This document shows positions 9,740-61,683 of a stretch of 64,000 nucleotides of DNA, piece after piece. The notes beneath the pieces were generated by a model. It ran no database searches, had not been told where the DNA came from, and worked only from the letters and a program-made list of their open reading frames with translations. How positions within the stretch are numbered: the stretch's first letter is position 1; each line of letters starts with the position of its first letter. The position numbers were made by a program, and so were the translations under genes. Source of the stretch: Candidatus Latescibacterota bacterium (GTDB lineage: Bacteria > Latescibacterota > UBA2968 > UBA8231); assembly GCA_965206595.1 (NCBI GenBank), contig OZ242214.1:3968001-4032000 (forward strand), read 5' to 3'.

Positions 9740-11002
9740 TCAACCTGTATCCTGCGCCAACTCCTCATGGCGCGCGGCGTAGATCGTCAGCTTGGTCGCG
9801 TCCCCGATCTGTTCGAGCTTGGGGCGGCGCCCGGACAGACGCAGGCTGTCCCTGACCAGGTTCAGGAACCCCTCTCCTCTGGCTTCCATATAGCTGCGGC
9901 CGGTAAGCGCGCTCTTGTAATCGCGCATGAATCCCGCCAGAAGCTGATTCCGGCGGACAGGCTGACAGCCCGCGTACAGGTTCTCGATGGTCAGGGTGTT
10001 GTAGAGGGCACCGGGATTCTGGAACTCGATCCGGTCGGGAAACAGGCGGATGATGATCTGCGAACCCGCGATCTCGTAATCCCGGTGCACGACGGCATTG
10101 ACGACCGCTTCCTGTAGAGCCGTTTCCACGTAACTCGGATAGTCCATTCGGCCCTCTCCGTCCTTCCTGGAGAGCGTCGGAACCAGGGGTGAAAGCCGGA
10201 TGTACGACAGCGCCTGGGCGATCTGCTCGGGCACGGGGCCGACGATCCGCTTGCTGTCCACGGTATTGCCGTCGGGCTCATCGTGGGCATATGCGGCCAG
10301 ATCGATGCAGGCGCCGTTCAAATGCCGCTCGGGCTGTTCGGCAAAGAGCAACAGCCCGAGGTGCGTCGGCGTCACACCCGAGTCCAGCTCGACGGCGAGT
10401 TTGTGGTCGACGAGGGTGGAGCCCCAGTCCTCGGGCCTGGACCAGTCCGGGAAGCGATCGAGGAAATATTGGTTCAAGCGAACCTCGCTCAGATCATCCA
10501 GATTGCTGCCCAAAACCGGTCTTTCTTCTACAGGGCTGGTCAGGCGACGAGCACTCAGCAGGCGTGCCAGTCGTTCCGGAGGGATGGATTGCCGGTGACT
10601 TCCCAATCGTTGAAGAAAGCGGCCGTCGCTCGTCTGGTGTATATCGAATCTGGACATGGGGATTTCAACAATCAGACACAGCTTTGGCACGCTGTCTTCT
10701 CCGGGAAGGTATTCCCAGTTCAACGCCGGTACGATCATAGACTTGCAGTTGTTCAGCGCCACGTTGACTACGAATTGCTCCAGGAGATCGCGCTTCTCGT
10801 GGTCGATTCCGACTGGAATGCGATCGCTGTTGGGCACGCCCATCACAACCTCGCCCCCCTTCGTGTTGGCCATGCTGACGAATACTTCTGCGAGTTTGGA
10901 CGCAGCCCGTCCTTCCTCCCTGGCAAAGGAAATCCTGTCTCCCCGGAACACGATCTCCTTCAGTTCGAGCTCGGTATCTTCCCCCGCCTGTATGGAATTC
11001 AT
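9740..11002 (-). CDS. AlbA_2 (Schlafen-like) domain + HATPase_c_4 (RecG-C-like) protein
   Basis: GEDTELELKE, SMANTKGGEVVMGV, EAVVNAVVHRDY, IEFQNPG, RRNQLLA, MEARGEG. Start uncertain; frame open to 11083. Confidence 0.85.
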   Translation of the reverse strand: MNSIQAGEDTELELKEIVFRGDRISFAREEGRAASKLAEVFVSMANTKGGEVVMGVPNSDRIPVGIDHEKRDLLEQFVVNVALNNCKSMIVPALNWEYLPGEDSVPKLCLIVEIPMSRFDIHQTSDGRFLQRLGSHRQSIPPERLARLLSARRLTSPVEERPVLGSNLDDLSEVRLNQYFLDRFPDWSRPEDWGSTLVDHKLAVELDSGVTPTHLGLLLFAEQPERHLNGACIDLAAYAHDEPDGNTVDSKRIVGPVPEQIAQALSYIRLSPLVPTLSRKDGEGRMDYPSYVETALQEAVVNAVVHRDYEIAGSQIIIRLFPDRIEFQNPGALYNTLTIENLYAGCQPVRRNQLLAGFMRDYKSALTGRSYMEARGEGFLNLVRDSLRLSGRRPKLEQIGDATKLTIYAARHEELAQDTG

Positions 11003-11107
11003 CCGTTCTTTGCTATCAATGGTCTTCGCCGCTCGCTCCGTGATCGGCTGCCTCCGGTGCCGACAGCGCCAACCAGCCGACAACCATGGTATGATAACGA
11101 CTGGCCA

Positions 11108-11443
11108 CTACTGGTCGAAGTACTTCGCCAGGATCAGCTCCTTGATCTCCTCGATCCCCCTTCCTTCATGGTGCCACTTGAAGGCGTCACGGCCTTCTTC
11201 GTTGCACTGGCGTCAGGTAGGGGGACAGCCTCCCTCGTAGCACCAGGCCAGGGTCTGTTTGCAACAGGCGCACGGCACCTCGCTGACCACCTCGGGGATC
11301 TCCTCCAGCAGGGTCCGGTAGAGGGCGAGTCCGTCAGGCGGCAACTCCGGCGGCTGGCTTTGCTGATGCAGGACGTAACCGCCGCCGGACAGAAGAACAG
11401 CTGCCGCTATGACGGCGAGGGCGGCTTTCCCTTTAGTGATCAC
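11108..11443 (-). CDS. PCYCGC-like Cys-rich exported protein with an in-frame TGA (candidate selenoprotein, UxxC)
   Basis: GGAGG RBS and GTG start overlapping the upstream gene; hydrophobic N-terminus; VPCACC..WCY..GCPPT-TGA-RQC..EEIKELILAKYFDQ-TAG, 111 codons with readthrough. Confidence 0.7.
11180..11215 (-). promoter_or_regulatory. Candidate bacterial SECIS element
   Basis: UGA at 11215-11213, then stem GAAGGC/GCCUUC with loop CGUGAC; the loop starts 21 nt after the UGA and has G at position 2. Confidence 0.55.
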
Positions 11444-11903
11444 TGTGCCCCTCCATTTTGCTGGCGGCCGGGGCGGAACCAGCCTCTCCGGCAGGTCGAA
11501 TCTCCGTGATCTCGATCCCGGTCAGGCCTCCCGAGGACCACAGGATCCCCTCGACGCTCACAGCCTGGCCGAGGTGCGGCAGCACAACTTCCTTCGGGTC
11601 GGCATGCCCGGAGGGCAGCACGACGAAAAGGTTCCCCGTCCTCTCCTCGAGGAAGGCCATCGGCATCCCGAGGTTGGCGCAGTAGACGGCGCACTTGGTG
11701 TGCTCCGGCCCGCTGGAGTCGTGGCGGAAGTAGCAGGCGATGTCGACGATCTCCCCCTGCATGGAAGCGGTATCGGCGACGGCCGCCTCGGCCGCCTCCG
11801 CCTTCTGGGTGGAGGCCTTGTCCTCGTGCACCGAGCACTGACTGCCTGTCGCTGCGGCCGGCAGGGCGATGGCGAGGATGGCGGCGAATCGGAAGCGTTT
11901 CAT
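11433..11903 (-). CDS. Exported Cys/His-motif protein (putative periplasmic metal-binding, OB-fold-like)
   Basis: Signal peptide MKRFRFAAILAIALPAAA; GEIVDIACY...HTKCAVYCANLGMP; ATGA overlap with the cusA stop. Confidence 0.8.
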   Translation of the reverse strand: MKRFRFAAILAIALPAAATGSQCSVHEDKASTQKAEAAEAAVADTASMQGEIVDIACYFRHDSSGPEHTKCAVYCANLGMPMAFLEERTGNLFVVLPSGHADPKEVVLPHLGQAVSVEGILWSSGGLTGIEITEIRPAGEAGSAPAASKMEGHSDH

Positions 11904-44286: not shown

Positions 44287-46485
<2,199 letters not shown>

Positions 46486-46658
46486 TTAACGGGGTTCTCG
46501 TTTCCGGACAAGGGATTCCGGCTCGGGAAATGGCGCAGGTTGGGGGGCACCACCCTTCGGCTGTAACGGCGGTACGGAGGACGGGTAGGGGTGAGGTGGG
46601 CATGGCGTCGGGGGCCCTCCTCGATTCGAGCTGCTCCGCCTGCGAAAATGCCCTGGGG

Positions 46659-46713
46659 TGGACGGCCCTGCTGGCCCGGGTGCTTTTTCGCGGACCTCAG
46701 CGGATGTCCGGCC
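46659..46713 (+). repeat. IS91-like remnant, copy B
   Basis: Encodes WTALLARV(F)..DLSGCPA with a frameshift, the motif that precedes the CPxCGG zinc ribbon of IS91-type transposases. Confidence 0.6.
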
Positions 46714-46885
46714 ACTGACCGAGTGAAGACAGTCTTCGCCGCGCCCTGGAGATGTTCCCCCAGGGCACGGTCCGCAACGCCGCCGAAAAAGCCTGTGGGG
46801 CCACCAAGAGGGGCCACCCCGCCCCTTGACCCCTGCCACAGTGGCAATTACGTACCCGTAACCAACCTCGATGGAGGTAAATACC

Positions 46886-47173
46886 ATGGCCGCCCCTGAA
46901 ACAACCCTGGTCGATGTCTCCGACTTGGTCCGTTCCGCCCTCCCTGAATTCCTCGGCGACGGCATAGTCATAGCCGACGTATACTCGGAATTCCTGCCAG
47001 GACCCGACGGTGATGACTATATCAGAACTACGGTGATCCTGGAGGATGATCACCCTGAACTCGATGCACGAACCCTGAACAAGTTCTCTCTGCACATCGC
47101 CCCGCTCTGCATGCAACGAGGCTTCGACCGACCGACCATCGCCTATGCCAACAGAAGCGAGATTCCGGTATGA
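46886..47173 (+). CDS. Small hypothetical protein
   Basis: GGAGGT RBS; 95 aa, acidic, DGDDYIRTTVIL; directly upstream of the GASH gene. Confidence 0.6.
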   Translation: MAAPETTLVDVSDLVRSALPEFLGDGIVIADVYSEFLPGPDGDDYIRTTVILEDDHPELDARTLNKFSLHIAPLCMQRGFDRPTIAYANRSEIPV

Positions 47174-47255
47174 CTGCCAGCAGCACCCAACCGGCCTTTC
47201 ATAATGCACTTTCAACGGAGTAACCGCGCTCGAAAAATCTGACAGGAGGGCTTTT

Positions 47256-48611
47256 GTGAACGACGATGTATTGCTGAGGTTCCTACGCAAGGGACTAATC
47301 GACGTAGGAGGCGATGACGACAAGCTCGGCCACTTGAGGCAAACGGCAGCCGATCTGGCCGGAATCCTCGAAAAGAGCCCGGCCAAGGCTTCGGCGTTCG
47401 CTCTTGTGGCGTTCGATCCTGATGTGCCGCCCAATGACCCGACCATCGCTGAGGCGGAAGAAGCACTACGCAAACGTTGGGAGACCTACGTCAATACATT
47501 TGCCGACACGCCAGTTGCGGTGTTTCGAGCCATGCTGTTGGATGCAGTGATCAAAGCCTGCGAGAAAAACGACACGGTGGCCGCGGCATTCGTTGCATCC
47601 GCGCGAAACGTGCTTCCGTTCATGGAGGTTGGCGAAGAGCGGGAAATCTGGGCTGACGTCGTCGCTGAAATCGAGAGGAAAGTGGAGGAGCGTGCTGAGA
47701 GGGAATGGGCAACACCTGAGTCGATTTCCGTGCCGGATATCAAGTTTGAGTCTGCCTCTGAGGTCGATATTCGTATTGTATCGAAAAAGACAAAGGCATC
47801 GAGCCTCAAGCCAAAGTTTGAGGCAGCTGCAGGACCTCACTCCATTAATCCTGAGGGAATACAGGGAGACACCGAAGGAAATCAGTACATGCCGCATGGC
47901 AATCCATATGAGTGGGTCTACCAGTTTGGCACGCTGATGGCTGAGGCTGTTGGAGATGCGATAAATCGGGCGGTTGGAAGTCTGTCTGTCGAAGGGCTCG
48001 ACCTGCCCGAATTTTCCCAAGACATAACGAACGTGATGTCCGAGCACCTCACGACCACATTGCAAGCCGTCAGCAGCGCCACGACCGGACTTCAGCGGCG
48101 TACGAATTTGCTGTGGTGGAAGGAGGCACTGTTTTCCCCGAGCGCTCGGAAGAGCTATCGCGAAATGTTGACATTCGACGCGGCGATGCTGATGGCTTTC
48201 GACATGCACCGAAATATCCCGACCTTCTCACCCGCGAGCGTCGCCGCGTTCCTGCGGGAGACGGTCATTGCGTTGCCAACGATGGATCAGGACGAGAAGG
48301 TTGCGATCAGGGAATTGGTAGAGAAGGCCCGCGATACCAGCATTCTGGAGGAGCTGAGAACGGAGGTAGGCAAACTGGTCGCCGCTCCTGCGGGTCGCAG
48401 CTCGATTCTCGGATTGATAGGGCATTCGGAGGCTGTGCCGCGAATCGACGACGGCACGTTTCGGGACTTCGTCGGGGTCAAGCCCGACACAATGCTCACC
48501 TTGCCGGATTGGTCGGTATGGATATTTCGCGAGCTTCAGGCGACTCGGGCCATTGCGGAAGCCTCCGCTCCCAAGCGGCGGACGGCTAGGGAGCGGAGGG
48601 CTGGGAAATAA
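47256..48611 (+). CDS. GTPase-associated system all-helical protein (GASH)
   Basis: All-helical 451 aa with RRTNLLWWKEALFSPSARKSYR and SPASVAAFL; first gene before two GTPases. Confidence 0.8.
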   Translation: MNDDVLLRFLRKGLIDVGGDDDKLGHLRQTAADLAGILEKSPAKASAFALVAFDPDVPPNDPTIAEAEEALRKRWETYVNTFADTPVAVFRAMLLDAVIKACEKNDTVAAAFVASARNVLPFMEVGEEREIWADVVAEIERKVEERAEREWATPESISVPDIKFESASEVDIRIVSKKTKASSLKPKFEAAAGPHSINPEGIQGDTEGNQYMPHGNPYEWVYQFGTLMAEAVGDAINRAVGSLSVEGLDLPEFSQDITNVMSEHLTTTLQAVSSATTGLQRRTNLLWWKEALFSPSARKSYREMLTFDAAMLMAFDMHRNIPTFSPASVAAFLRETVIALPTMDQDEKVAIRELVEKARDTSILEELRTEVGKLVAAPAGRSSILGLIGHSEAVPRIDDGTFRDFVGVKPDTMLTLPDWSVWIFRELQATRAIAEASAPKRRTARERRAGK

Positions 48612-48616
48612 ACGCC

Positions 48617-49567
48617 ATGGCGGAATGTCCCCGGGAGACATGTTGGCCGGATATGGGCTGTAGTCTGGGCCACCTCGACCTCTCGAAGTGTCCGGCGCTG
48701 AAAGCGGACCGCACGGAAAAGGAGGACGAGGAAGCGTTGACGGAAGCGGCGGCCATGCCCTGGTCGGGAGGCGCGCTCGGGCTTACAGACCTCGGTTTCG
48801 TCGCAGGTCGGAACAAGCCGATCGTGCTGGCGATCATAGGACCGCATAAGGCGGGCAAGACCACGTTACTGGGAGCTTGGTATCTGTTGCTCGGAAAAGG
48901 TTTCCGACTGGACGACAAGCTGCGATTCGCAGGTTCCTGCTCGCTCGGCGGATGGGAGGTTGTTGCAAGCTCGCTACGGTGGGAGCCGGGTTCAATTCCT
49001 CCCGCGTTCCCACCGCACACGACCAGTAGCAATACACGCATCCCGGGATTGCTCCACTTGGCGTTCAGGCACGGGCAGGATCATCGCAGGGACTATGTGA
49101 TGACGGATGCGCCCGGCGAATGGTTCCAGAAATGGGCGATCAAGAGCGATGCGCCAGAGGCGGAAGGCGCGCGATGGGCTGCCGAACACGCCGACGCGTT
49201 CCTGTTGGTAGCGGATCGCGAAGCCTTGGCGGGAGAGGAAAGGGGCGCCGCCCGCAGCGGAATTCAACTGCTCGCGCGACGCTTGGCGGATGAGCTTAAA
49301 GGGAGGCCCGTCGCCCTTGTCTGGACGAAAGCGGATGTTTCGATCACGAGCAAGATGGAAGAAGCAGTGCGAAGCGCGGTGCGGAGGGTGATCCCGGAAG
49401 CCGTCGAGTTTGAGGTCAGCATCATGCCCGAGTCCGACAGTGCTGAGAACGAGCAGGGGTTCCTGAACCTTCTTGGCTGGGCTCTGGATGTCCGCCGACC
49501 GGCCGTACAGCTCCCTGAACCGGCGAGCGGCAATCTCGATCCCGTGTTCAGATTTGGTGCGAGATAG
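48617..49567 (+). CDS. TRAFAC-clade GTPase (double-GTPase system, first subunit)
   Basis: GPHKAGKT (G1), FPPHT (G2), DAPGE (G3), WTKAD (G4); Cys-rich N-terminus. Confidence 0.85.
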   Translation: MAECPRETCWPDMGCSLGHLDLSKCPALKADRTEKEDEEALTEAAAMPWSGGALGLTDLGFVAGRNKPIVLAIIGPHKAGKTTLLGAWYLLLGKGFRLDDKLRFAGSCSLGGWEVVASSLRWEPGSIPPAFPPHTTSSNTRIPGLLHLAFRHGQDHRRDYVMTDAPGEWFQKWAIKSDAPEAEGARWAAEHADAFLLVADREALAGEERGAARSGIQLLARRLADELKGRPVALVWTKADVSITSKMEEAVRSAVRRVIPEAVEFEVSIMPESDSAENEQGFLNLLGWALDVRRPAVQLPEPASGNLDPVFRFGAR

Positions 49568-49570
49568 ACA

Positions 49571-50404
49571 ATGGGAGTGCCCGACAGGTCGATCCTGGTG
49601 ATCGGGGAATCCGGCGTTGGCAAGTCTCACTACGGAGGCCAGCTGCTGAAGCGGCTGATGAAAGAGGACGGGCGCATCCGAATGGCGGGAGCAGCGGCCA
49701 ATCTGGAGCCCTTCGAAGCCGTTATGGCCAGACTGGATGCTGGGGTGTCGGCGGACCATACTTCCACTGCGGTCTACCATGAGAGCCGCTGGCCGGTTAT
49801 CGATGAAGAGGGACGCAAGGCCAACTTGATCTGGCCCGATTACGGCGGCGAGCAAATCAAGAACATCATCGACAAGAGGCGTCTTCCGCATGCCTGGCTG
49901 AACCGGATCGCCCAGTCCTCGGCTTGGCTCCTGTTGATTCGTCTGCAAAGGGCTCGGGTCGAGGATGACATCTTCTCCCGTCCTCTGACATCGCTGGAGG
50001 AGAGCAGCAGAGAGCCTGGGGAGGCGCCGTTGTCCGATCAGGCCCGCTTGATCGAGTTGCTGCAAATGCTGGCATATGTCCACTCCAAATCAGATAGCCG
50101 TAGGGACCGGCTACCGTGCCTCGTTGTTCTCCTGACATGTTGGGACGAGATGAAGAGTCCAGGGAGGCCGGTCGATGTCTTGCAGGAACGCCTCCCGATG
50201 TTTGGCGAATTCGTCGATAGCAATTGGGAGGATTCTTCGGTACTCGGACTCTCTGCTCTGGAACGAGCGCTGGACAAAGAGGTACCCGACGAGAGCTATA
50301 TCGCTCAAGGCTCGGAACAGTTTGGCTACGTGATTCTGGAGGACGGCAGTCGCTCCACCGATTTGACGCTGCCGATCCGGAAGCTTCTCGCCGAACCGGC
50401 GTGA
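49571..50404 (+). CDS. TRAFAC-clade GTPase (double-GTPase system, second subunit)
   Basis: GESGVGKS (G1), DHT (G2), DYGGE (G3), LTCWD (G4 variant), SAL (G5). Confidence 0.85.
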   Translation: MGVPDRSILVIGESGVGKSHYGGQLLKRLMKEDGRIRMAGAAANLEPFEAVMARLDAGVSADHTSTAVYHESRWPVIDEEGRKANLIWPDYGGEQIKNIIDKRRLPHAWLNRIAQSSAWLLLIRLQRARVEDDIFSRPLTSLEESSREPGEAPLSDQARLIELLQMLAYVHSKSDSRRDRLPCLVVLLTCWDEMKSPGRPVDVLQERLPMFGEFVDSNWEDSSVLGLSALERALDKEVPDESYIAQGSEQFGYVILEDGSRSTDLTLPIRKLLAEPA

Positions 50405-50426
50405 CACTGGCGTCGGAGTTCGGGCC

Positions 50427-52931
50427 ATGCAGGTAGAGCAAGCCTTGTATGGCGAGTGTCGGGGTGGACACTCCCTGCTGGTGTCGAGCGTTAACGACGC
50501 GGTGTCGACGGCCATCGTCCAGCGCCTTGATCTACCCGATACGGCACCGCCGGGTGTCGAGTGGTCGCCGTTCCTTCGTGGCTTTCCGTACGAAGATCGA
50601 TATGTGCTGTCGCGGACGTTCCGCGATACAGGTGCAACGCGGGGCGGAATGGTCTTCTCGCACGCTCTCCTCGCTCCCCTGGATGAAATGGGGGAAATGT
50701 CGGATCTGCGGCCTCTTCTGAATCTGCTCGCAGTTTCAGACCAGCAACGGCCGGATGCGGTTACGCTGCAACTCGATGGCATAGAAACGGGGCTTCCGCA
50801 TGCTGAGGACCTGACGGAGGCCGCAGAGGCGCTGGGGACGAAAGCACAACTGCCGGTTGTGCGGCTTGGCCATGTGGGGTTTGATGACCTTGTCGTCGCT
50901 TTGTGGGCGCACCTGTCACCGCAAATCCGCCGAGGGTTCGCTTTTCGCCTCAGTTTCGACCCGCGTGATCTTGTGGAAACGCCGATGCCGGCGCTGGTAT
51001 GTACGCCCCGCGGGATGGAGGCGCGCTGGTCTGAGTATCCAGTGATCCGTTCGCCGGAGCGCCGGGAACCGGGCTCGCTCGCCGGGGCGATACTGAGCGG
51101 TCACGGAAAGGCAGCTCCCCTCGTCGAATTCATGCACGACGTGGGCGTCAAGCCGGCGACGTTTTCTGAGCTGCGATTGGTAGAGCAAGCCTATTGCCTC
51201 GACATTGGCGAGCCGACGTTTGAGCGATGTGTCGGAACCGTGAGGCTGATCGGGAAGCTGTCACCCGCTGCAGATGAGGGCGAAGAGGGGAAGAACGCTC
51301 TTGTCCGACGGTTGTGTGATCAACTGTCGGCAGCCAGCGCTGAAGATATTCTGCGGGTGCGGAACCTCGAGCTTTACGCTTTCCCCTCTCCGAACCGGGT
51401 GTGGAAGGCGCTCGAGGGATGGGTGGCCAAGAACAGCTTTTCCCCGGACCAGGATGTGGAAATGCTGTCCGTGTTTGAGGACGCCACCGCTGGCACCAAT
51501 GCTGTCCATGAGTGGGGAACCGCGGTACTGGACGGGTTGGCGGTCGCGACGGGCTCGCGCAGGACCTCCTTTCCCAAAGCCTTCTGGCGCTGGTTTCAGA
51601 CTCAACCCGAAATCGTAACCGCCGTGTTCCGCCATGTCCCCGTGGAAGCCGGCGTGGAGGAACGGTTGGCGAGGGCAACGCCGCGCAATCTCGATGAAGC
51701 GGCGGCGAAGAGACTCGCGACGGACGCTTTGTCTCGCGGATGGCTCTGTCTGCACGGGGCGGTGCTGGCGGCCATTGTCTCAACGTCGGATGCGGCGCGG
51801 CGCCAGGTCGCGGTCGATACCGATCTATCGTTCGTCGAAGGTCTCCGGTGGGCTCTTCGACACGCGAAGCCGGCAGAGGTCGTCAAGTGTGCGCTGGAGA
51901 TTGATGACCCGCGCCTGCCACGGCTTGCCGGTGAAGCTGTTGCCAAGGCACCAAGGCTATTGTCCAAGGTCAATCTCACGGCGATCAAGGCGCAGGCGAT
52001 TTGGCGCGAAGCTCTAACCATCGATCCTGAGACTTGGCGGGGCCCAGCCGATCCGCAGGTCGCGTTTCGTTCGATTCTCGATCATCGGTTGAGCGGCGGC
52101 GAGACGGATACTTCGCTGATTGAACGACTGTCGGATACACCCGTCGCAGATCTCGGAGGCTATCCGCGGCGGGTAGAGATTTGGTCGCGCATTGGTGGCG
52201 CGGCACTCCAAAAGCTACTGGCGAGAACCGCCAAAGGGTGGCTCGGGCAAGCAGCCAAGGTCGGAGTTCCGTTTGTCCCCGAACGGGAACTGCAAATCGC
52301 GATCTTGGAGAGCGAGGAGCTTGAGCAGACGCTGTACGCACTAATCCCCAACGGTGTTGGCGGCCTCGTTCGAATTGTGGCTGCTCTGAATCGGTACGAC
52401 GAGCAACGGTTTCTACGCTTGTTGGAAAAAGTGCTATCGCGCACAGCCTTGGTGGCAACTGAGGACGCCGAGGTTGTTGGACGTCTGGTGCTGGAACGTA
52501 GATGGGTGGACGTCACTGCCGAGCTGGTCGATCAATATCGAAGCGGACGGCGGGATCTTGAACCCGCGCTCCGAGCCTGTGGTGACATTCTCGGTTTCTG
52601 GGATCGTTTCGTTCTTGGGGTAGCACCGGTGTCGGAGGGGGAGAAGTGGAAGGGCTTCGAGGAGATGGCTGTCCAGCTCTACCCGGGCGGTCCGGACGAC
52701 CGCGAATTATGGGAGCGTGCGGGTGGAGACAACGCCGACTTGCCAACGCGGGATGATGGGCGGTCAAGATGGCGCAGAGCGGTGCGAGAGATGCGAAATG
52801 GAAGGGGACCGACTGCCCCGGAGCTGTTGGCCGCAATGATGGAGGATTTCCAAAACAATGAACGGATCCGCCATCTCGCCGGGGATCCTGTATTTAGTGG
52901 AGGCGTCCGGGATGATTTCCAAGATGAATGA
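50427..52931 (+). CDS. GAP1-N1 domain protein with C-terminal EAD1
   Basis: N-terminal VEQALYGE..GGHSL..DLP..RGGMVFSH; C-terminal LYPGGPDDRELWERAGGD..GRSRW. Confidence 0.8.
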   Translation: MQVEQALYGECRGGHSLLVSSVNDAVSTAIVQRLDLPDTAPPGVEWSPFLRGFPYEDRYVLSRTFRDTGATRGGMVFSHALLAPLDEMGEMSDLRPLLNLLAVSDQQRPDAVTLQLDGIETGLPHAEDLTEAAEALGTKAQLPVVRLGHVGFDDLVVALWAHLSPQIRRGFAFRLSFDPRDLVETPMPALVCTPRGMEARWSEYPVIRSPERREPGSLAGAILSGHGKAAPLVEFMHDVGVKPATFSELRLVEQAYCLDIGEPTFERCVGTVRLIGKLSPAADEGEEGKNALVRRLCDQLSAASAEDILRVRNLELYAFPSPNRVWKALEGWVAKNSFSPDQDVEMLSVFEDATAGTNAVHEWGTAVLDGLAVATGSRRTSFPKAFWRWFQTQPEIVTAVFRHVPVEAGVEERLARATPRNLDEAAAKRLATDALSRGWLCLHGAVLAAIVSTSDAARRQVAVDTDLSFVEGLRWALRHAKPAEVVKCALEIDDPRLPRLAGEAVAKAPRLLSKVNLTAIKAQAIWREALTIDPETWRGPADPQVAFRSILDHRLSGGETDTSLIERLSDTPVADLGGYPRRVEIWSRIGGAALQKLLARTAKGWLGQAAKVGVPFVPERELQIAILESEELEQTLYALIPNGVGGLVRIVAALNRYDEQRFLRLLEKVLSRTALVATEDAEVVGRLVLERRWVDVTAELVDQYRSGRRDLEPALRACGDILGFWDRFVLGVAPVSEGEKWKGFEEMAVQLYPGGPDDRELWERAGGDNADLPTRDDGRSRWRRAVREMRNGRGPTAPELLAAMMEDFQNNERIRHLAGDPVFSGGVRDDFQDE

Positions 52932-54079
52932 ACCGCGCCGAACTGGAGGCGGGGGGCGTGGATGAAGCCTTGGAAAGGGCGGCCGAGGTGACAGGGGATT
53001 TTGCCACCGGACATGCCATCGTCATCGGCGTCGCGAATTACAGGAACGTGCCGGGGCTGCCCGAAGCGGTGCTGAATGACGCGCGGGACGTGGCCGCGGT
53101 CCTGCGATCCAACGCCTACTGTGGATATGAGCCACGTGACGTGCACGTGTTGCTCGACAGCGACGCCACGCTGGAGCGGATCAGGGCAGCCTTGGCTACC
53201 GTGGCCAAGACCAGCCGACCGGAGGACACGGTCGTCATCTTCTTCTCCGGGCATGGTGCCCTTCTCGGTGATCCCGTCGACCCCGAAAGCGCGCTACTGC
53301 CGGTCGAATGCGATGGACGGACACTGGATAGCACGAGCTTGTCCGAGGCGGAATTCTCTTCCGCACTTCGGGGATTCGCCGCTAAACGTCTGCTTGTCCT
53401 GATCGACGCTTGCCACTCCGCAGGCGCCGGGAGCTTCAAGGGCGGAGGAGCGGAGGAGTTACGGTCTCTCGGCTATAGCGAAAAGTCTCTTGGACGCCTG
53501 GCCCAGGGCGTCGGCCGCGTCCTTATCGCGTCTTCCCGGGCCAGCGAAGTATCCTGGGTACTGCCAAAGGCTCGGAACAGCGTGTTCACCTCCCATCTTT
53601 TGGATGCGCTGCGGGGCCAGGCGCGCACGAGCGGGGACGGGCTGATTCGGGTGTTCGAGGTCTTCAATCATGTCTCGGAGATGGTGCAGCGCGAGATGCC
53701 GGGGCGTCAGCATCCGGTCTTCAAGGCGAGCGACCTTGAGGACAATTTCCCTGTCGCGCTCGACCGGGGCGGGGTGAAATCGGACGCTACGGCGTCGGAT
53801 GCAGTAGGGGAGTCCGATGTCTGGAGCCAAATGGCAGAGATGATGCCGGGTCTTTATCCAGCAGGGCCGATGGATCAGGAAGTCTGGGCGCGTGCGGGCG
53901 GTGATCCGTCTCGCTTGCATCTGCAGGAGACAGGGCGGGTCGCCTGGTTCAAGGCTTTGCGTATGCTCCGTCAAGGTGGTGGAGGGGCAGGAATTCGCAA
54001 AGGAAGCCTGATTGAAACTGCGCTTGAGGACTACCCCCACCATCCGGTTTTGCGTGCACTACTGCGTGCACTACTGTGA
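52928..54079 (+). CDS. Caspase-like (peptidase C14) effector with C-terminal EAD1
   Basis: AIVIGVANY, catalytic FSGHG and IDACHS; C-terminal LYPAGPMDQEVWARAGGD; ATGA overlap. Confidence 0.88.
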   Translation: MNRAELEAGGVDEALERAAEVTGDFATGHAIVIGVANYRNVPGLPEAVLNDARDVAAVLRSNAYCGYEPRDVHVLLDSDATLERIRAALATVAKTSRPEDTVVIFFSGHGALLGDPVDPESALLPVECDGRTLDSTSLSEAEFSSALRGFAAKRLLVLIDACHSAGAGSFKGGGAEELRSLGYSEKSLGRLAQGVGRVLIASSRASEVSWVLPKARNSVFTSHLLDALRGQARTSGDGLIRVFEVFNHVSEMVQREMPGRQHPVFKASDLEDNFPVALDRGGVKSDATASDAVGESDVWSQMAEMMPGLYPAGPMDQEVWARAGGDPSRLHLQETGRVAWFKALRMLRQGGGGAGIRKGSLIETALEDYPHHPVLRALLRALL

Positions 54080-54407
54080 GGTGAGGCCTGTCTTTTCTGA
54101 CACGCACCCGCAAGGTCCGCCGCGCGTCCCTCCGGCCCCATGCAACGGGGGCATGGATATCTTGCCAGAAGGAATTTTCTTTCCTGACACCGGAGTGTTA
54201 ACCGACGCGGACCGAAGAACCTGGGAGATGGCTCCAGCAAGGGAACGGCCACTGCATGGTGAGAAACGCATGGCCGTCATCGCTAGTGTTCTCGGTTAAA
54301 GAGACGGCATTGAATTTTGGACCTTTACCAGCTTGACATCGTCCCGGTTTCGATGTCGCCCCACCACCACCGAAAAGGATCCCATTGGTATGAAAGGGCA
54401 ATCAATC

Positions 54408-54787
54408 GACCTCAGCGGCTGTCCGGCCTGTGGCGGTCGCCTGCGGATCGTGGCCGCCCTGACCGATCCGGCCTCGATCCGGACCTGTCTGGAGGGGGTA
54501 GGGCTGCCGGCGGTGCCCCCGCCGAGGGCCCCGCCTCAGCCGCAGTTCAAGTTCGCCGTTTGACCTCCTCCGCATTGGCTCCCTGCGCGGTGAGCGGTAC
54601 GGAGGAGGGCGCCCTCAAGTACCGGGTTGACCCCTGAAAGGCGCCAAAATCCTTTACAACGGTAGTCGGAGCAGTCCCGAACGATTCGGTGCGAGGACAA
54701 GCAATTCACCAGGGACCCTGCTGGACCCTCGCGTACGATTTCAGCGAACTGCATAGTACCGATATCGGTGCCTTATTTTTCCTATAC
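54408..54787 (+). mobile_element. IS91-like remnant, copy C (transposase 3' end plus ori-like end)
   Basis: DLSGCPACGGRLRIVAALTDPASIRTCLEGVGLP..PPPRAPP; ends in TTTCCTATAC, resembling IS91/ISCR oriIS. Confidence 0.75.
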
Positions 54788-54924
54788 TCTTCACCTTCCC
54801 GCATCTCGGCAAGCTGCTCGTGGGCGAGTTGACAAGCGCCGACGTGCTCCACCCGAATTCCTGAATGCACCGACCGCTGTGTGCCCGAAGTCTGGCATCC
54901 GAATAAGAAGGGGCTGAAACCGGC

Positions 54925-56607
54925 ATGACGAACGAAGTAATCACCACCGACTTGGCCGACGCCGAAATCCTCTGGAAGTCGGCCGACACCCTGCGCGGCC
55001 AGATCGATGCTGCCGAGTACAAACACGTCGTACTCGGCCTGCTCTTCCTGAAGTACATTTCCGACTCCTTTGAGGCACGGCGCGACGAGCTCAAGGGGGA
55101 ACTGGAAGCCGACGACATCAGCGGGCCTCAGATCGAAAGCCTGCTGGAGAACCGCGACGAGTACACTGCCGAGCGGATCTTCTGGGTGCCGCCCGAGGCA
55201 CGCTGGCAGAACCTCCAGAACCAGGCCGCGCGGCCGGACATCGCCACGCTGATCGACGACGCCATCCTCACCATCGAGCGCGACAACCCGAACCTCAAGG
55301 GCAAGCTGCCGCGCGACTACGCCCGTCGCGGCATCGCGCCGGAGAAGATGAAGGGGTTGATCGACCTGATCGCCGACATCGGCTTCAGGGGCGATCGCGC
55401 CAAAGCCCGCGACACGCTCGGCCGCGTCTACGAGTACTTCCTGGGCAAGTTCGCCCAGGCCGAGGGCAAGCTCGGCGGCGAGTTCTTCACGCCGCGCTGC
55501 ATCGTGCGGCTGCTGGTCGAGATGCTCGAGCCGTACGAGGGCCGCGTCTTCGACCCCTGCTGCGGCTCGGCCGGCATGTTCGTGCAGTCCGAGCGCTTCG
55601 TGGAAGCCCACGACGGGCAGAAGACCGACATCTCGATCTTCGGTCAGGAGTCCAATCCCACCACCTGGCGGCTGGCGCACATGAACCTGGCTATCCGCGG
55701 CATCGAGGCCAACCTTGGCTCTCAGCCCGCCGACAGCTTCCTGCGCAACCTGCACCCCGACCTCAAAGCCGACTACATCCTCGCCAATCCGCCGTTCAAC
55801 ATCTCGGACTGGTCGGGCAAGCTTCTGGCCGACGACGTGCGCTGGCGCCACGGTACGCCACCCGTCGGCAATGCCAACTACGCCTGGATCCAGCACTTCA
55901 TCCACCACCTGGCCCCGCCTGACGGGCATGGCGGCGGAGTCGCCGGCTTCGTCATGGCCAACGGCTCGCTCTCCACCGGCTCCGGCGGTGAGGGCGAAAT
56001 TCGCCAGCGCATCGTCGAGGCCGATCAGGTGGATTGCATCGTCGCGCTGCCAGCGCAGCTCTTCCTCACCACCGGCATCCCCGCCTGCCTCTGGTTCCTC
56101 ACGCGCGACAAGACCGGCAGGAACCTCAAGAAAGGCGGGCGTGACCGCAGGGGCGAGACGCTCTTCATCGACGCCCGCAAGCTCGGCACGATGCAGACCC
56201 GTACCCTCCGCGTGCTCACCGGCGGCGACGACGGCGAAAGCATGTTGGCCGATGGCATGGGCGACCCCAATTTCGATTCCGACCTCGGCCGCATCGTCTA
56301 CACCTTCCGCCAGTGGCGGGGCGAGCCCGCGCCGGGTTGGTGGGTCGAAGCGCAGCATGGCAAATGGGCGTACAGCGACATTCCCGGCTTCTGCAAGGCG
56401 GATACGATCGCGGGAATCGGCAAGCACGGCTTCGTACTCACCCCCGGCCGCTACGTTGGCGCCGAGGAGCAGGCCGACGACGGCGAACCGTTCGCGAAGA
56501 AGTACCCGCGGCTGCTGGGGGAGTTGGAGGTGTGTTTTCGGGAAGGGGAGCGACTGATGGCTGTGGCCCGTGAACGGGTGCTAAGGGTTGAGAGTGATGC
56601 CAACTAG
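54925..56607 (+). CDS. hsdM: Type I restriction-modification methyltransferase subunit
   Basis: [39 protein letters not shown]. Confidence 0.96.
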
Positions 56608-57922
56608 GTGGCCCATGCGCTCAGTCCTCGAGCTCCAGGATGAAGGGACCTTACTCGTCGCGGACGGCAATCACGGTGAGTACCGTCCGCGCAGTGATGA
56701 GTTCGGCCAAGGAGAGTATGCGTTCATTCGGGCAGCAGACCTGGAAAACGGACAAGTGCTCTTCGACGCAGTGCAGCGGATAAACGACCAGGCCCTGGCG
56801 CGGATTCGGAAGGGCGTTGGCCAAGGCGGCGACGTCCTCTTCTCCCACAAGGGCACGGTTGGTAAGCTCGCGCTCGTTCCGCTCGACGCCCCTCCTTTCG
56901 TCTGCTCGCCTCAGACCACGTTTTGGAGGACGCTCGATGAGGAGCGTCTTGATCGGCGATACCTGTACTACTTCATGCGCTCCAACGCATTCACAGACCA
57001 GTGGATGGCGCGAAGTAATGAGACCGATATGGCGGCTTACGTCAGCCTCACGGCGCAGCGGCAGTTAAATGTTGCTCTGCCAGAAATCGACGAACAACGC
57101 GCCATCGCCGGTGTTCTCGGTGCGCTGGACGACAAGATTGAGCAGAACCGGCGTACGGCGCGGGCGCTGGAGCGACTGGCGCAGGCGATCTTCCAGGCGT
57201 GGTTCGTCGACTTCGAGCCGGTAAAGGCCAAAGTCGCCGGCGCGGCCTCCTTCCCCTCTTTAGCCCAGCCCGTCTTCGACGCCCTGCCCACCCGCTTCGG
57301 CGATTCTGAGATCGGCCCCGTGCCGAAGGGGTGGGAGCTGAAGCCGATCGCAAACATTGCGACGTTCCTGAACGGACTGGCACTTCAGAAGTACCCGCCT
57401 CGCGGCGATGGCGAAGACCTGCGCGCGGTCAAGATCGCCCAACTCCGCAAGGGTTCAGCAGAAGGTGCCGCCTGGGCGAACAGCGATGTGGCCGAGCAGT
57501 ATGTGATCGGCGATCGTGATCTGTTGTTCTCGTGGTCGGGCACCCTCGAAGCCGAGTTCTGGTTCGGCGGCAAGGGCGCGCTGAATCAGCACCTGTTCAA
57601 GGTCACGTCGTCGCACTTCCCGAGTTGGTTTTGCCTACTTTGGATTCGGCAGCACCTGCCGTGGTTCCGCGCCATCGCAGCAGGTAAGGCAACAACGATG
57701 GGGCACATCAAACGTGGACACCTTCAAGAAGCGCCGGTCGTCGTCCCTCCGAATGAGGTTCTTCATGAAGCGAACGAAGTGATTGGTACGCTCTACGATC
57801 TCTTCGGCCAGCTGATGATTGAATCGCGGAAGCTGGCGGCGATGCGCGACGTGCTCCTTCCGAAGTTGCTGTCCGGCGAAGTGCGGGTACGGGTGGACGG
57901 AGGCGCCGATGGTGAGTCATGA
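56597..57922 (+). CDS. hsdS: Type I restriction-modification specificity subunit
   Basis: Two TRDs with conserved [27 protein letters not shown] and [12 protein letters not shown]. Confidence 0.93.
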
Positions 57923-58631
57923 CCGCCCCTTCGAACTCCATAGCTGTCGCGAACTCTTCGAACGGTATCCAGCCTCAACGTCGTTGAGACCGGCAGTCGA
58001 GGTCATCGAACGGACAATCCAGGATGAACCTGGCATTGCATTCACACACTGCCGAGGCTTACTGGAAACCGTATGTGTGACGATACTCGCGGACCGCGGC
58101 ATAGAGATCCCGCCGAATCCAAAGCCGAACTGGCTCATGACACAGGCAATAAAGACACTGCAACTCACAGCGCTGAACCCCGACGACAAGGCAGCTGAAG
58201 ATGGCGTTGCTAGTATCCTGCGGGGACTGAATTCACTGGTTGACGGTGTCGTGGCCTTGCGCAAGAGCCAAGGTGTCGGGCCACATGGTCGGGACGCGCT
58301 GGCATCTGTGCTTTCTGTTGATTATGCGATGCTGACCGCGACAGCGGTAGATGCGGCTGTCGGGCTTATGTTCCGGCTACATCAAGAGCAAATCGGCCGC
58401 GATCCGATCAACCACTTGAGATTCGGAGTTCACGCAGATTTCGACAGTTTTCTTGACGGCAAGTACTCAGACATCGAGATCGAAGAGGTTCCGGTCAGTG
58501 CGAGTCAGGCGCTTCATCACCAGGATCCCTTGGCTTATCGCAAGAGCCTTGTGGAGTTCAGAAACCGATCCGAAGCGGAGAACGAGGAGATAGCGGAAGG
58601 CGAGAGCATTTCCGAGGACGCCGATGGATGA
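57909..58631 (+). CDS. Abortive infection (Abi_C-like) family protein
   Basis: CRGLLETVCVTIL...LRKSQGVGPHG (HEPN-like RxxxxxxH); embedded between hsdS and hsdR. Confidence 0.7.
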   Translation: MVSHDRPFELHSCRELFERYPASTSLRPAVEVIERTIQDEPGIAFTHCRGLLETVCVTILADRGIEIPPNPKPNWLMTQAIKTLQLTALNPDDKAAEDGVASILRGLNSLVDGVVALRKSQGVGPHGRDALASVLSVDYAMLTATAVDAAVGLMFRLHQEQIGRDPINHLRFGVHADFDSFLDGKYSDIEIEEVPVSASQALHHQDPLAYRKSLVEFRNRSEAENEEIAEGESISEDADG

Positions 58632-61600
58632 ACTGACTGCAGAACTCGCTGCCGCTGCGTGGTTTGAGTCTGTAAGGATTCCCGTCATGTCGGCATCCGA
58701 ACTGACCGAAGAGCGTCAGTTGGTACCGGGAACCGTGATTCTGACCACGGTATTGAGCGGTGTTTTGCGTCGTCTCAACCCCGATATGCCGCACGACAGC
58801 ATCGAGGAGGTCGTGCGCATCCTGTCGCGCCCGCCACACCCGACGCTGATCCAGAACAACCGTTGGTTCCATGCGCAGGTCACCGACGGCGTCGAGATTG
58901 AGTACCAAGAATCGAACAGCGGCGAGACTCGCGGGGACCGCGCGAGGCTGGTCGATTTCGACAACCCGGTCGCGAACGATCTACTGGTACTGCGCCAGCT
59001 CAGCGTCGCCGGACCGTCGGGCAAGATCATCCGCCCGGACCTGACAGTGTTCCTGAACGGGCTGCCGGTCGCGTTGATCGAGCTAAAAGACCCGACGGAC
59101 ATCCAGGCAAACCTGGGCGTGGCCATCGACCAGCTCGACCGCTACATGCAGACCGCCCCGGACCTGTTCGTGTCAAACCTGGTGCTTGTGGTCTCGGACG
59201 GCATGCTGACTCGCGTCGGCTCGATCACCAGCGGGCGCAGCCTCTTCATGCCCTGGCGCCCGATCGACGATCGTGAGGGCGGCGGCCCGCCGACTCTGGA
59301 GGCGCTGATACGGGGCCTGTTTGATTCCCGGATGTTGGTGGACTACCTGCGGACCTGTGTCACTTTCGAGGAGGACGAGCGGGGCGAGATCGCCAAGAAG
59401 ATCGCGGGCTACCACCAGTTCCGCGCGGTGCGCAAGGCGCGCGCCAGCGTGCTTACGCGCCTTAAGCCGCCGGCCGGCACGGGCGACGGTCGCGGGGGCG
59501 TGATCTGGCACACCCAGGGCTCGGGCAAGTCGCTGACCATGTTGATGTTGGCGGGGGGCCTGATCCGAGAGTCGCGCATGACCAACCCGACGATCGTCAT
59601 GATCACCGACCGCAACGATCTGGACGATCAGCTCTTCGACACCTTCGCCGCCGGGCGTGCGCTGCTTCGGCACGACCCGGTCCAGGCCGCGAGCCGGGAA
59701 CATCTCAAGGCGCTGCTCGACCGCGCGGCGGGTGGAGTGGTGTTCACGACGATTCAGAAGTTCGCCGAGGCGCACGGCGTGGTCTCGGAGCGCTCGAACA
59801 TCGTCGTCATGGCCGACGAGGCACACCGTAGCCAGTACGGTTTCGTCGAGGGCGGCGCGCGCTGGATGCGCGAGGCGCTGCCGAACGCCACTTTCGTCGG
59901 CTTCACCGGCACGCCGCTGGAGCACGACGACAGAAACACGATCCACGTATTTGGCGAATACGCGGACGTCTACGACATCCGCCAGGCCGTCGAGGACGGC
60001 ACGACCCGGCCGCTCTACTACGAATCCTGCATCATCAAACTGAAGGTGGACGAGGAGGGCGCGCGCGTCGCCGAGAAAGAGGTTGAGTATGTAGCCAACC
60101 GCGACCGACGCGGGGAAGGGGCGGAGGACAGTATCCGAGTCCCGCTGGAGTCCCTGGTCGGCGGCCAGGAGCGCATCAAACGCCTGGCGGCGTTCATCGT
60201 CGAGCACTGGGAGAAGCGCCGCGCCGCGATGGAAGGCAAGGCGATGGTGGTGACCATGAGCCGCGACATTGCCGCGCGGCTGTACGAGGCGATCCGCGCG
60301 CTGCGCCCGGACTGGCACGACGTCGACGACGAACGGGGGGCGATGAAGGTGGTCGTGACCGGCACCGACGAAGATCCCGAGCCGCTCAGGAACCATGTCC
60401 GCACCAAGGCCGCACGCAAGCGTCTGGCGGAGCGCTTTAAGGCCCCCCACGACGACCTGCGCCTGGTGATCGTCTGTGACATGTGGCTCACCGGCTTCGA
60501 CTGCCCACCAGCGCACACCATGTATCTGGATAAGCCGCTGGCCGGGCACAGCCTGATGCAGGCCATCGCGCGCGTGAATCGTGTCTACGGCGACAAGCCC
60601 GGTGGACTGATCGTGGACCTGCTGGGCCTAGCCGAGCAGTTGGGAGATGCGCTTGCGACTTACACCCAAGCCGGCGGCACGGGCAAGGCCGTCAGGAGAG
60701 TGCAGAACGAGGCTGTCCCTGCCATGCAAGCGGCCTTCAAGAAACTACGTGGCTTCTTCCACGGTTGCGACTACGAGCAGGCGCTCGACGCCAAACCGCA
60801 AGCCGTGCTTCTGGTGTATCTGCGCGCGATCGATCACGTCTTTGGGCAGAACGACGGCTGGAAGCGCCTGCGCACGCTGGTCAAGGAGTTGTCGGCGGCC
60901 TTCGCGCTGGCGGTTCCGCGCCCGGAGACCGAAGCCATCACGGCGCACCTCGCCTTCTTCCAGCGCGTGGTCGCGATGATTCGTAACCGATTGGCTGACG
61001 ATACCGGCGGTGGCGCCGGTCACGCTCGGCAACGCGACATCGACGCCGCAGTGCGCCAAGTTATCGGCGGCGCGATCGATGCCGACGAAGTAATCGACCT
61101 GTTCGCCGTCGCGGGGCTGTCGGACGCCCGCCTCGACATCCTTAGCGATGAGTTCCTGGGTCGGGTGGCGGCACTGGAGCAGAAGAACCTGGCCTTGGAG
61201 ACGCTGCGCAAGCTGCTCAATGACCAGATTCGTATCACCGAGCGCACGAACATTGTCCAGAGCCGCAAGTTTCGCGAGGCCCTCGAAGACGCGATGCTGC
61301 GCTATACGAACAGGGCGATCACCACCGCGGAGATGATCTCGCAGCTGATCGACTTGGCGAAGAGCCTGCGGGACGCGCAGCGCCACGGCGAAGAACTCGG
61401 CCTGAGCGGCGGGGAAACTGCCTTCTACGACGCCCTGGCGGAGAACAGATCAGCTAGGGAAGCGATGCAGAGCGATACGCTGCGTCTCATGGCTCGGAAA
61501 CTGACCGAAATGGTCAAGAGCATGCCCAAGCTTGACTGGACCCATCGCGAGTCCGTACGGGCGAGCCTGCGGCGCAATGTTCGTCGGTTGCTGGCAAAGT

Positions 61601-61683
61601 ACGGCTACCCTCCGGATCTGGCCGAGGACGCGACGCAGCTCGTTTTGCGACAGGCGGAGCTATCAACGGAGAACTCGGAGTAG
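58624..61683 (+). CDS. hsdR: Type I restriction endonuclease subunit R
   Basis: RPD..NGLP..IELK nuclease; [36 protein letters not shown]. Confidence 0.96.

Follow-up and report, generated by a model that had tools for sequence, protein, structure and literature searches.

In a 64,000-nt stretch of the genome of a Candidatus Latescibacterota bacterium (contig OZ242214.1, positions 3,968,001 to 4,032,000 of the forward strand; hereafter the window, numbered from its first letter), five consecutive genes between positions 47256 and 54079 encode a GASH protein, two DO-GTPases, a GAP1 scaffold protein and a caspase-like protease. We consider it probable that this cassette is an intact, horizontally acquired conflict system of the GAP1-N1 GTPase-centric type, in its caspase-EAD1 version (EAD1, effector-associated domain 1), serving most likely as an abortive-infection module against phages or mobile elements.

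All five open reading frames (ORFs) lie on the + strand and are free of internal stops. The first four are separated by 5, 3 and 22 nt, and the GAP1 and protease genes overlap by 4 nt. The first-pass annotation, made from the letters of the window, had described five tightly coupled genes with no frameshifts; the five frames are open as it placed them, and each family that it had named (GASH, DO-GTPase1 and DO-GTPase2, GAP1-N1, EAD1 and Peptidase_C14) was recovered by hidden Markov model searches. Every Pfam match of the five proteins exceeds its curated cut-off, with scores of 330 bits against a cut-off of 27 for GASH (PF19994) and 84.5 bits against 21.4 for the protease (PF00656). The features of the cassette, with expectation values (E) of the matches, are as follows.

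47244..47249, + strand: Shine-Dalgarno-like AGGAGG, 6 nt 5' of the GTG start of the GASH gene, seen in the letters
47256..48611, + strand: GASH protein, 451 residues, all-helical, GTG start; PF19994 at residues 7-431, E 2.3e-98
48617..49567, + strand: DO-GTPase2, 316 residues, with an N-terminal four-Cys zinc-ribbon-like motif; PF19993, E 6.5e-65
49571..50404, + strand: DO-GTPase1, 277 residues, the paralogous GTPase; PF19975, E 1.4e-74
50427..52931, + strand: GAP1 scaffold protein, 834 residues; PF20012 and PF19955
50433..50729, + strand: GAP1-N1 domain, residues 3-101, presumed GTPase-contacting module; PF20012, E 5.8e-28
51084..52631, + strand: all-alpha solenoid of GAP1, about residues 220-735, candidate sensor or scaffold surface; AlphaFold2 model
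52638..52883, + strand: EAD1 adaptor domain of GAP1, residues 738-819; PF19955, E 2.4e-10
52928..54079, + strand: caspase/metacaspase-like protease with C-terminal EAD1, 383 residues; PF00656, E 1.1e-23, and PF19955
53006..53749, + strand: Peptidase_C14 catalytic domain, residues 27-274, with H109, C162, D51 and D160; PF00656
53825..54073, + strand: EAD1 adaptor domain of the protease, residues 300-382; PF19955, E 3e-08

Hydrophobic stretches resembling a membrane helix are absent from all five proteins, the highest Kyte-Doolittle mean over 19 residues being 1.58. A scan of positions 46000-55200 against Rfam gave zero matches at E<=0.1. Between 46400 and 55000, one promoter was found against 1.6 expected from shuffled sequences, that is, not above shuffles, and terminator-like sites numbered 13 against 7.8 expected, a count that is uninformative.

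The protease and its partner domain

Searches at E<=1e-3 returned 711 homologues of the protease. H109 (in SGHG), C162 (in DACHS), D51 and D160 are invariant in 36/36 aligned homologues, and H109 and C162 align with the SGHG and DxCHSG motifs of solved fungal and plant metacaspases (7qp0, metacaspase-1, E 9.1e-07; 6w8s, metacaspase-4). The first-pass claim that the protease retains its His-Cys dyad is thereby borne out. D51 and D160 align with the Asp residues of xNDA and DxCHS in metacaspases, which we take to be the S1-pocket positions giving Arg/Lys specificity.

The C-termini of the 834-residue protein and of the protease had been noticed at first pass to be homologous. BLASTP agrees, aligning the two EAD1 domains with 25/57 identical residues (44%, E 6e-12), and PF19955 matches both. 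They are the only two EAD1 matches in the 7.05-Mb genome; within it, the EAD1 pair is private to the cassette. Prediction of a complex between the two (GAP1 residues 728-834 and protease residues 288-383, with 36-row alignments for each) scored 0.01 against a mark of 0.32, a result that speaks neither for nor against binding. The genome holds one other Peptidase_C14 match only (G000:C1:2302161-2302826, + strand, E 2.1e-13), far from the window, in an 851-codon frame that has no EAD1.

The gasdermin family PF04598 is unmatched by the five cassette proteins and by the scanned neighbors; it has zero matches in this 92.9%-complete genome, yet also zero in all 14 control genomes. TIR families are absent from the five cassette proteins and from the 21 neighboring ORFs scanned.

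The two GTPases

The window copies of the GTPases were aligned with the copies from the related loci described below (10 of DO-GTPase2 and 11 of DO-GTPase1). DO-GTPase2 carries a Walker A motif GPHKAGKT at residues 75-82, DAPGE at 164-168 and the guanine-specificity motif TKAD at 237-240, and its N-terminal cysteines C4, C9, C15 and C25 are invariant in 11/11 sequences. In DO-GTPase1, of which the genome has a single copy, the Walker A motif is GESGVGKS (12-19) and is followed by DYGGE (90-94), while TCWD at 189-192 replaces NKxD. DAPGE and DYGGE, each a Walker B motif followed by Glu, are invariant in the aligned copies. Judged by these motifs, both GTPases keep their predicted nucleotide-binding sites intact.

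The GAP1 scaffold

GAP1 has 280 homologues at E<=1e-3, and the best 120 of them are 59-100% identical to the window protein and nearly all about 834 residues long; its N-terminal 222 residues lead to 905 cluster representatives. When the window GAP1 is compared with 122 diverse full-length homologues, identity averages 48% in the GAP1-N1 domain, 35% in residues 102-215, 30-32% in the solenoid (residues 216-735) and 42% in EAD1. Because of these regional differences, the two ends of GAP1 are predicted to be constrained interaction modules and the middle to be its fast-evolving part. A strict EAD1 signature motif is present in 73 of the 123 members of the GAP1 alignment.

An AlphaFold2 model of GAP1 was built on an alignment of 36 close homologues and has a mean predicted local distance difference test score (pLDDT) of 75. 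Residues 220-825 are confidently all-helical in this model, with a long solenoid followed by the five short helices of EAD1. In the solenoid (about residues 220-735), means over 10-residue blocks are mostly 85-97 and only helices are predicted. A Foldseek search of the model against the PDB returned generic HEAT/TPR-type solenoids only, zero of them at E<=1e-3. An Atlas feature search with residues 1-215 of the GAP1 homologue P0032 gave a lead, no more, to GAP1-N2/GAP1-M clusters (0.91, 0.89 and 0.87).

The five genes recur as a sharply bounded unit

An alignment-driven scan identified 11 related loci; a scan with the single GAP1 protein recovered none. The genomes concerned are labeled Binatia, Alpha- and Gammaproteobacteria, Terriglobia, Thermoanaerobaculia, Palauibacter and Phyllobacterium chamaecytisi. 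Nine of the 11 loci carry the complete five-gene set, 10 have a caspase-EAD1 gene next to GAP1, and the GASH proteins found in first position are 45-71% identical to the window copy. Nucleotide identity between the window and these loci is 64-79%, starting at 47236-47244 and ending at 54045-54060. Since similarity stops at the cassette edges, the moving unit is exactly these five genes, a sharply bounded segment of 6.8 kb. Recurrence of the same set in 9/11 loci, with nucleotide similarity ending at its edges, is far beyond chance.

Of the ORFs that flank the cassette in the window, none recurs beside it in any of the 11 related loci, and there is no conserved sixth gene; thus the first-pass remark that no substrate gene is visible holds across all of them. 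A survey of 75 ORFs flanking the related cassettes revealed restriction-modification or Abi families in 6/11 loci: an Eco57I-type methylase (L006), GmrSD and a D12 methylase with EcoRV (L007), type I systems (L008 and L012), AbiEii and SIR2_2 with HerA (L013), and a methylase with Bpu10I (L014). DUF499 and AAA_15/AAA_21 ATPases flank the cassette in L005.

GAP1 homologues are also found on eight plasmids, five of them predicted to be conjugative, and in one Leptospira phage record. Skermanella mucosa pSM-1 has all five genes, with RefSeq names that include GASH, EAD1-containing protein and caspase family protein. On the conjugative IncHI2A plasmid pCTX-M_SCLZS19 of Enterobacter kobei (NZ_CP110879.1; L105, 2927-9550), the cassette lies between integrase/IS3 and transfer genes. 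In this plasmid GAP1 is annotated as two coding sequences, one of 655 residues with GAP1-N1 and one of 158 residues with EAD1, and the DO-GTPase1 coding sequence begins at profile position 31; this copy of the cassette may be damaged.

The record of Leptospira phage LkmZ_Bejolso9 (KF114878.1; L106, 2963-9548) shares with the window the four core genes (GASH, DO-GTPase2, DO-GTPase1 and GAP1-N1 with EAD1), in the same order and with the same spacing. It differs in that its GAP1 is only 24% identical and that the fifth gene encodes a PNP_UDP_1 phosphorylase, followed by an integrase gene. About 90 residues of the phosphorylase lie outside the PNP_UDP_1 Pfam domain. Occupation of the fifth position by a phosphorylase shows that the effector gene at the end of the cassette is exchangeable.

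Relation to described systems

GTPase-centric conflict systems were defined computationally by Kaur, Burroughs, Iyer and Aravind (eLife 2020; PMC7159879). According to its sections on the GAP1-N1 subtype, such systems combine GASH and GAP1 with a pair of DO-GTPases, one of which has an N-terminal zinc ribbon, and with effectors that include caspase and trypsin peptidases, PNPase, TIR and calcineurin-like domains. Three ways of coupling effectors are given there: fusion, a GAAD adaptor, and EAD1 carried by both GAP1 and the effector encoded by the next gene. The window cassette shares with this description GASH, the zinc-ribbon and second DO-GTPases, GAP1-N1, EAD1 on GAP1 and on the next-gene effector, and a caspase of the kind listed. 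It further shares the position of the GAP1 gene downstream of a DO-GTPase gene (here 22 nt after DO-GTPase1), the Walker B motif followed by a conserved Glu, and a mobile, patchy distribution. The match to predicted GTPase-centred systems with effector-associated domains, put forward at first pass, is thus upheld. The word "ternary", also used then, is not, since the corresponding passages of the paper apply it to MoxR-vWA systems. The cassette is an ordinary, well-preserved member of a kind that is already described, and named in Pfam and RefSeq annotation.

Some features depart from the published account. Transmembrane components occur in 67% of the systems tallied in the paper, whereas the cassette has no membrane component; the commonest hosts listed there are proteobacteria, bacteroidetes and spirochaetes, and the present host and most of the relatives fall outside these groups.

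The same paper proposes homotypic contacts between effector-associated domains by analogy with Death-fold domains; binding between EAD1 domains and control by the GTPases are therefore a published hypothesis. The likeness to Death-domain/caspase signaling suggested at first pass is sound as an analogy, but the Death-like adaptor of the paper is bDLD1/EAD3, not EAD1. With the animal apoptosome and inflammasome (CARD-CARD and Death-fold contacts), the cassette would share a small helical adaptor carried by both an NTPase-controlled scaffold and a caspase-family protease, an analogy drawn in the passages on adaptors (PMC7159879). The animal complexes use a STAND ATPase, in contrast to the pair of TRAFAC GTPases found here, and EAD1 is not the bacterial Death-like domain (bDLD1/EAD3).

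Two experimental precedents bear on the lack of a substrate gene. The protease of type IV Thoeris "indiscriminately degrades cellular proteins" and is presented in a heading of the preprint as a "promiscuous arginine-specific protease" (Rousset et al., 10.1101/2024.10.24.620036); it resembles the cassette in having a caspase-family protease as terminal effector and no dedicated substrate gene. It differs in its activation by a TIR-made nucleotide, whereas the cassette has no TIR domain and GTPase-gated adaptor recruitment is presumed. An effector-less caspase-like protease of E. coli protects against three phages in a manner dependent on the catalytic Cys (PMC12642450). Because of these two precedents, the missing substrate gene is no longer a difficulty.

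The cassette is foreign to its host

GC content is 55-63% in the cassette as opposed to 68-72% in the left flank. At third codon positions, GC content (GC3) reaches 88-89% in the nearby katG, BNR and hsdM genes but only 65-71% in the five cassette genes. GASH was found in 0/60 relatives of the host and in 0/167 other genomes searched in the host phylum. On account of this composition and distribution, the cassette is horizontally acquired, with a codon usage foreign to the host.

On either side of a 7.7-kb segment containing the cassette lies one half of the 3' end of an ISCR/IS91-type transposase gene (46622-46713 and 54408-54700), the two being complementary. The halves overlap by a 21-nt direct repeat matching at 20/21 positions (46693-46713 and 54408-54428), and they are contiguous in other copies in the genome (L096, L098, L099, L100 and L102). 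One of these, L096:950-1657, matches Y2_Tnp (1.1e-09) and, below the cut-off, the NCBIfam model ISCR_clade_Ia (1.2e-29). The genome holds at least 36 copies or fragments of this remnant, and the stretch at 4.01-4.11 Mb has several on the same strand. The segment with the cassette seems to have been inserted into an ISCR/IS91-type remnant.

Contigs joining positions 46682 and 54426 (run X1), or 46686 and 54407/54406 (run X7), were first taken as cassette-free alleles. This "empty site" reading was rejected: the joined pieces are halves of the multi-copy remnant, and the letters at the joints match intact paralogues such as L096.

Proposed mechanism

Carriage by plasmids and a phage record, and neighbors of the restriction and abortive-infection kind here and in 6/11 related loci, speak for a role in defence. 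If the cassette acts in abortive infection, as we think probable, the paralogous DO-GTPases might form a heterodimeric switch on the conserved GAP1-N1 domain. A cue from the invader would be sensed by the variable alpha-solenoid of GAP1, perhaps with the help of GASH, and the nucleotide state of the switch would change in response. The EAD1 domain of GAP1 would then recruit and concentrate the EAD1-tagged metacaspase-like protease, which would be activated by proximity. Having no dedicated substrate gene, the protease could cleave host proteins, phage proteins or both broadly after Arg or Lys, and such proteolysis would halt growth before the phage cycle ends.

A bolder version, which we rate somewhat below even odds, is that the cassette forms a self-contained, soluble platform for caspase recruitment: a GTPase heterodimer would take the place of a STAND ATPase and gate an 830-residue solenoid, whose variable surface would read a phage protein, and EAD1 would nucleate the assembly of a proteome-shredding protease, with the last gene as a plug-in slot. 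As this slot holds a caspase here and a phosphorylase in the Leptospira phage, one sensor-switch core could drive unrelated killing chemistries. If it were shown to exist, such a platform would represent prokaryotic immunity of a mechanistically new class. Control of a protease by GTPases would add a GTPase-switched class to anti-phage systems, and control of a caspase-family protease by two GTPases via a helical adaptor would offer a test, in bacteria, of the adaptor-recruitment logic best known from cell death in animals. The cassette is a compact, highly conserved test case: its five proteins are soluble, its one adaptor pair is private, and it comes with no further gene for a substrate. 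Some cultured bacteria have it too (Phyllobacterium chamaecytisi, Skermanella mucosa), as do rhizobial plasmids.

Several observations weigh against an abortive-infection module working in this way. The mechanism is a chain of inferences with a putative sensor and a putative trigger, and the placement in defence islands is an association only. The published description (PMC7159879) defines GAP1 by three domains, N, M and C; the Pfam families for two of them, GAP1-M and GAP1-C, are undetected in the window protein even at E<=10, and residues 1-214, the proposed GTPase contact region, have pLDDT below 50 in the AlphaFold2 model. PADLOC models match the protease only. The other four proteins being without a model, the system lies outside that 2023 catalogue of known and candidate defences. 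A literature search found computational mentions only, and no measured phenotype, binding or activity for this GASH/DO-GTPase/GAP1 family, in line with the first-pass statement that no experimental characterization was known. 

A 2026 preprint by the group of Kaur et al. calls the DO-GTPases "recently characterized" in a passage that cites their own comparative work; a 2026 Nature paper has EAD only as a figure abbreviation, and GTPases are unmentioned in a 2026 Nucleic Acids Research screen. No sequence relative of the GASH, DO-GTPase1, DO-GTPase2 or GAP1 profiles was found among solved structures.

The related loci add two further points against such a module. Copies are interrupted or truncated in 4/11 loci: L004 has GASH split by about 1.45 kb, L005 is without GASH and the first half of DO-GTPase2, GASH and DO-GTPase2 each align in two pieces in L010, and L011 is without the protease and the last third of GAP1. 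The cassette therefore appears to be often lost or decaying. Three of the 11 loci (L006-L008) carry the protease gene in the orientation opposite to that of the core (about 10508-11629, - strand), convergent with GAP1. Strict co-transcription is thus not required, and regulation may differ between hosts. The inverted gene ends a run of - strand genes that includes restriction-modification genes.

Alternative readings

The main rival holds that the protease is a processing (signaling) enzyme, which would cut one defined target, either a component of the system such as GASH or GAP1 or a latent toxin or pore-former with its gene outside the cassette, and that the product of the cut does the damage. 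Passages of PMC7159879 cast many such peptidases as a second regulatory threshold, freeing effectors by proteolysis, and in the modules dealt with in PMC12642450, EACC1, MBL, hydrolase and Pepco proteins are latent effectors unleashed by site-specific cleavage. The window protease belongs to a related caspase clade, and the logic of protease-driven cell death would be common to both; its sole NCBIfam match is the EACC1-associated caspase model (NF047832, caspase_w_EACC1). However, the score is 103.4 bits, below the 140-bit cut-off, the adaptor is EAD1, and the cassette has no gene for EACC1 or another latent effector. Nor does a conserved extra gene accompany the cassette in the 11 loci, and the genome gave no gasdermin match, though the control genomes are equally silent. 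The discussion of adaptors in PMC7159879 groups EAD1 with those recruiting effectors, not signaling enzymes, and a phosphorylase in the same slot of the Leptospira phage suits a terminal effector better. Altogether, we regard a processing role as unlikely, and a protease that itself does the damage as the better reading.

It is less likely still that the cassette acts mainly on behalf of mobile elements, as a module for addiction or exclusion by which plasmids or phage-plasmids are stabilized or rival elements fought, and not as host immunity against lytic phages. Homologues do travel on plasmids, over half of them conjugative, and in a phage record beside an integrase; the E. kobei copy sits between integrase/IS3 and transfer genes, and the window copy is bracketed by transposase gene pieces. 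Against this, the window and the 11 related loci are on chromosome-sized or other contigs not labeled as plasmids, next to restriction-modification systems, and the cassette lacks a short antitoxin-like partner. True anti-phage systems are equally typically carried on mobile elements, and the two roles are compatible.

That the cassette is a silent passenger, intact through recent arrival but unexpressed or non-functional in this host, is very improbable: its codon usage is far from that of the host, no conserved promoter region moves with it (homology begins about 20 nt before the first start codon) and decayed copies are common elsewhere, but five frames are open across 6.8 kb, the motifs for catalysis and nucleotide binding are undamaged, the GASH gene has a strong ribosome-binding site in front of it, and near-identical contigs spanning parts of the cassette occur in sequencing runs of other studies. 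No RNA run carrying it figured among the 24 sequencing runs retrieved.

Genomic surroundings

The genes on either side of the cassette are listed below.

44287-46419, - strand: katG, peroxidase, upstream of the cassette, E 1.2e-69
46871-47173, + strand: gene of 100 codons, preceded by a good ribosome-binding site; part of the inserted segment, 83 nt before GASH
54925-56607, + strand: hsdM, type I restriction-modification, directly downstream of the cassette
56588-57922, + strand: hsdS, type I restriction-modification
57819-58631, + strand: Abi_C-domain gene, between hsdS and hsdR; Pfam, E 1.5e-10
58624-61683, + strand: hsdR, type I restriction-modification

The 100-codon gene has no Pfam or NCBIfam match and is not beside the cassette in any of the 11 related loci. 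It is single-copy in the genome and has 113 database homologues, 54-94% identical, mostly of 95 residues and all unnamed. In the restriction-modification locus, GC3 is atypically low in the Abi_C gene (62%) and in hsdS (73%), as compared to 83-88% in hsdR and hsdM. On the other side of the cassette, KatG is 75-89% identical to copies labeled Latescibacterota, Gemmatimonadota, Dehalococcoidia, Spirochaetia, Binatia and Gammaproteobacteria; with many genomes of the Latescibacterota label the figure is 87-89%, which fits that host assignment but is weak evidence for it, given the range over other phylum labels. Identity across phyla is unusually high for this protein, which suggests that katG may have been exchanged as well.

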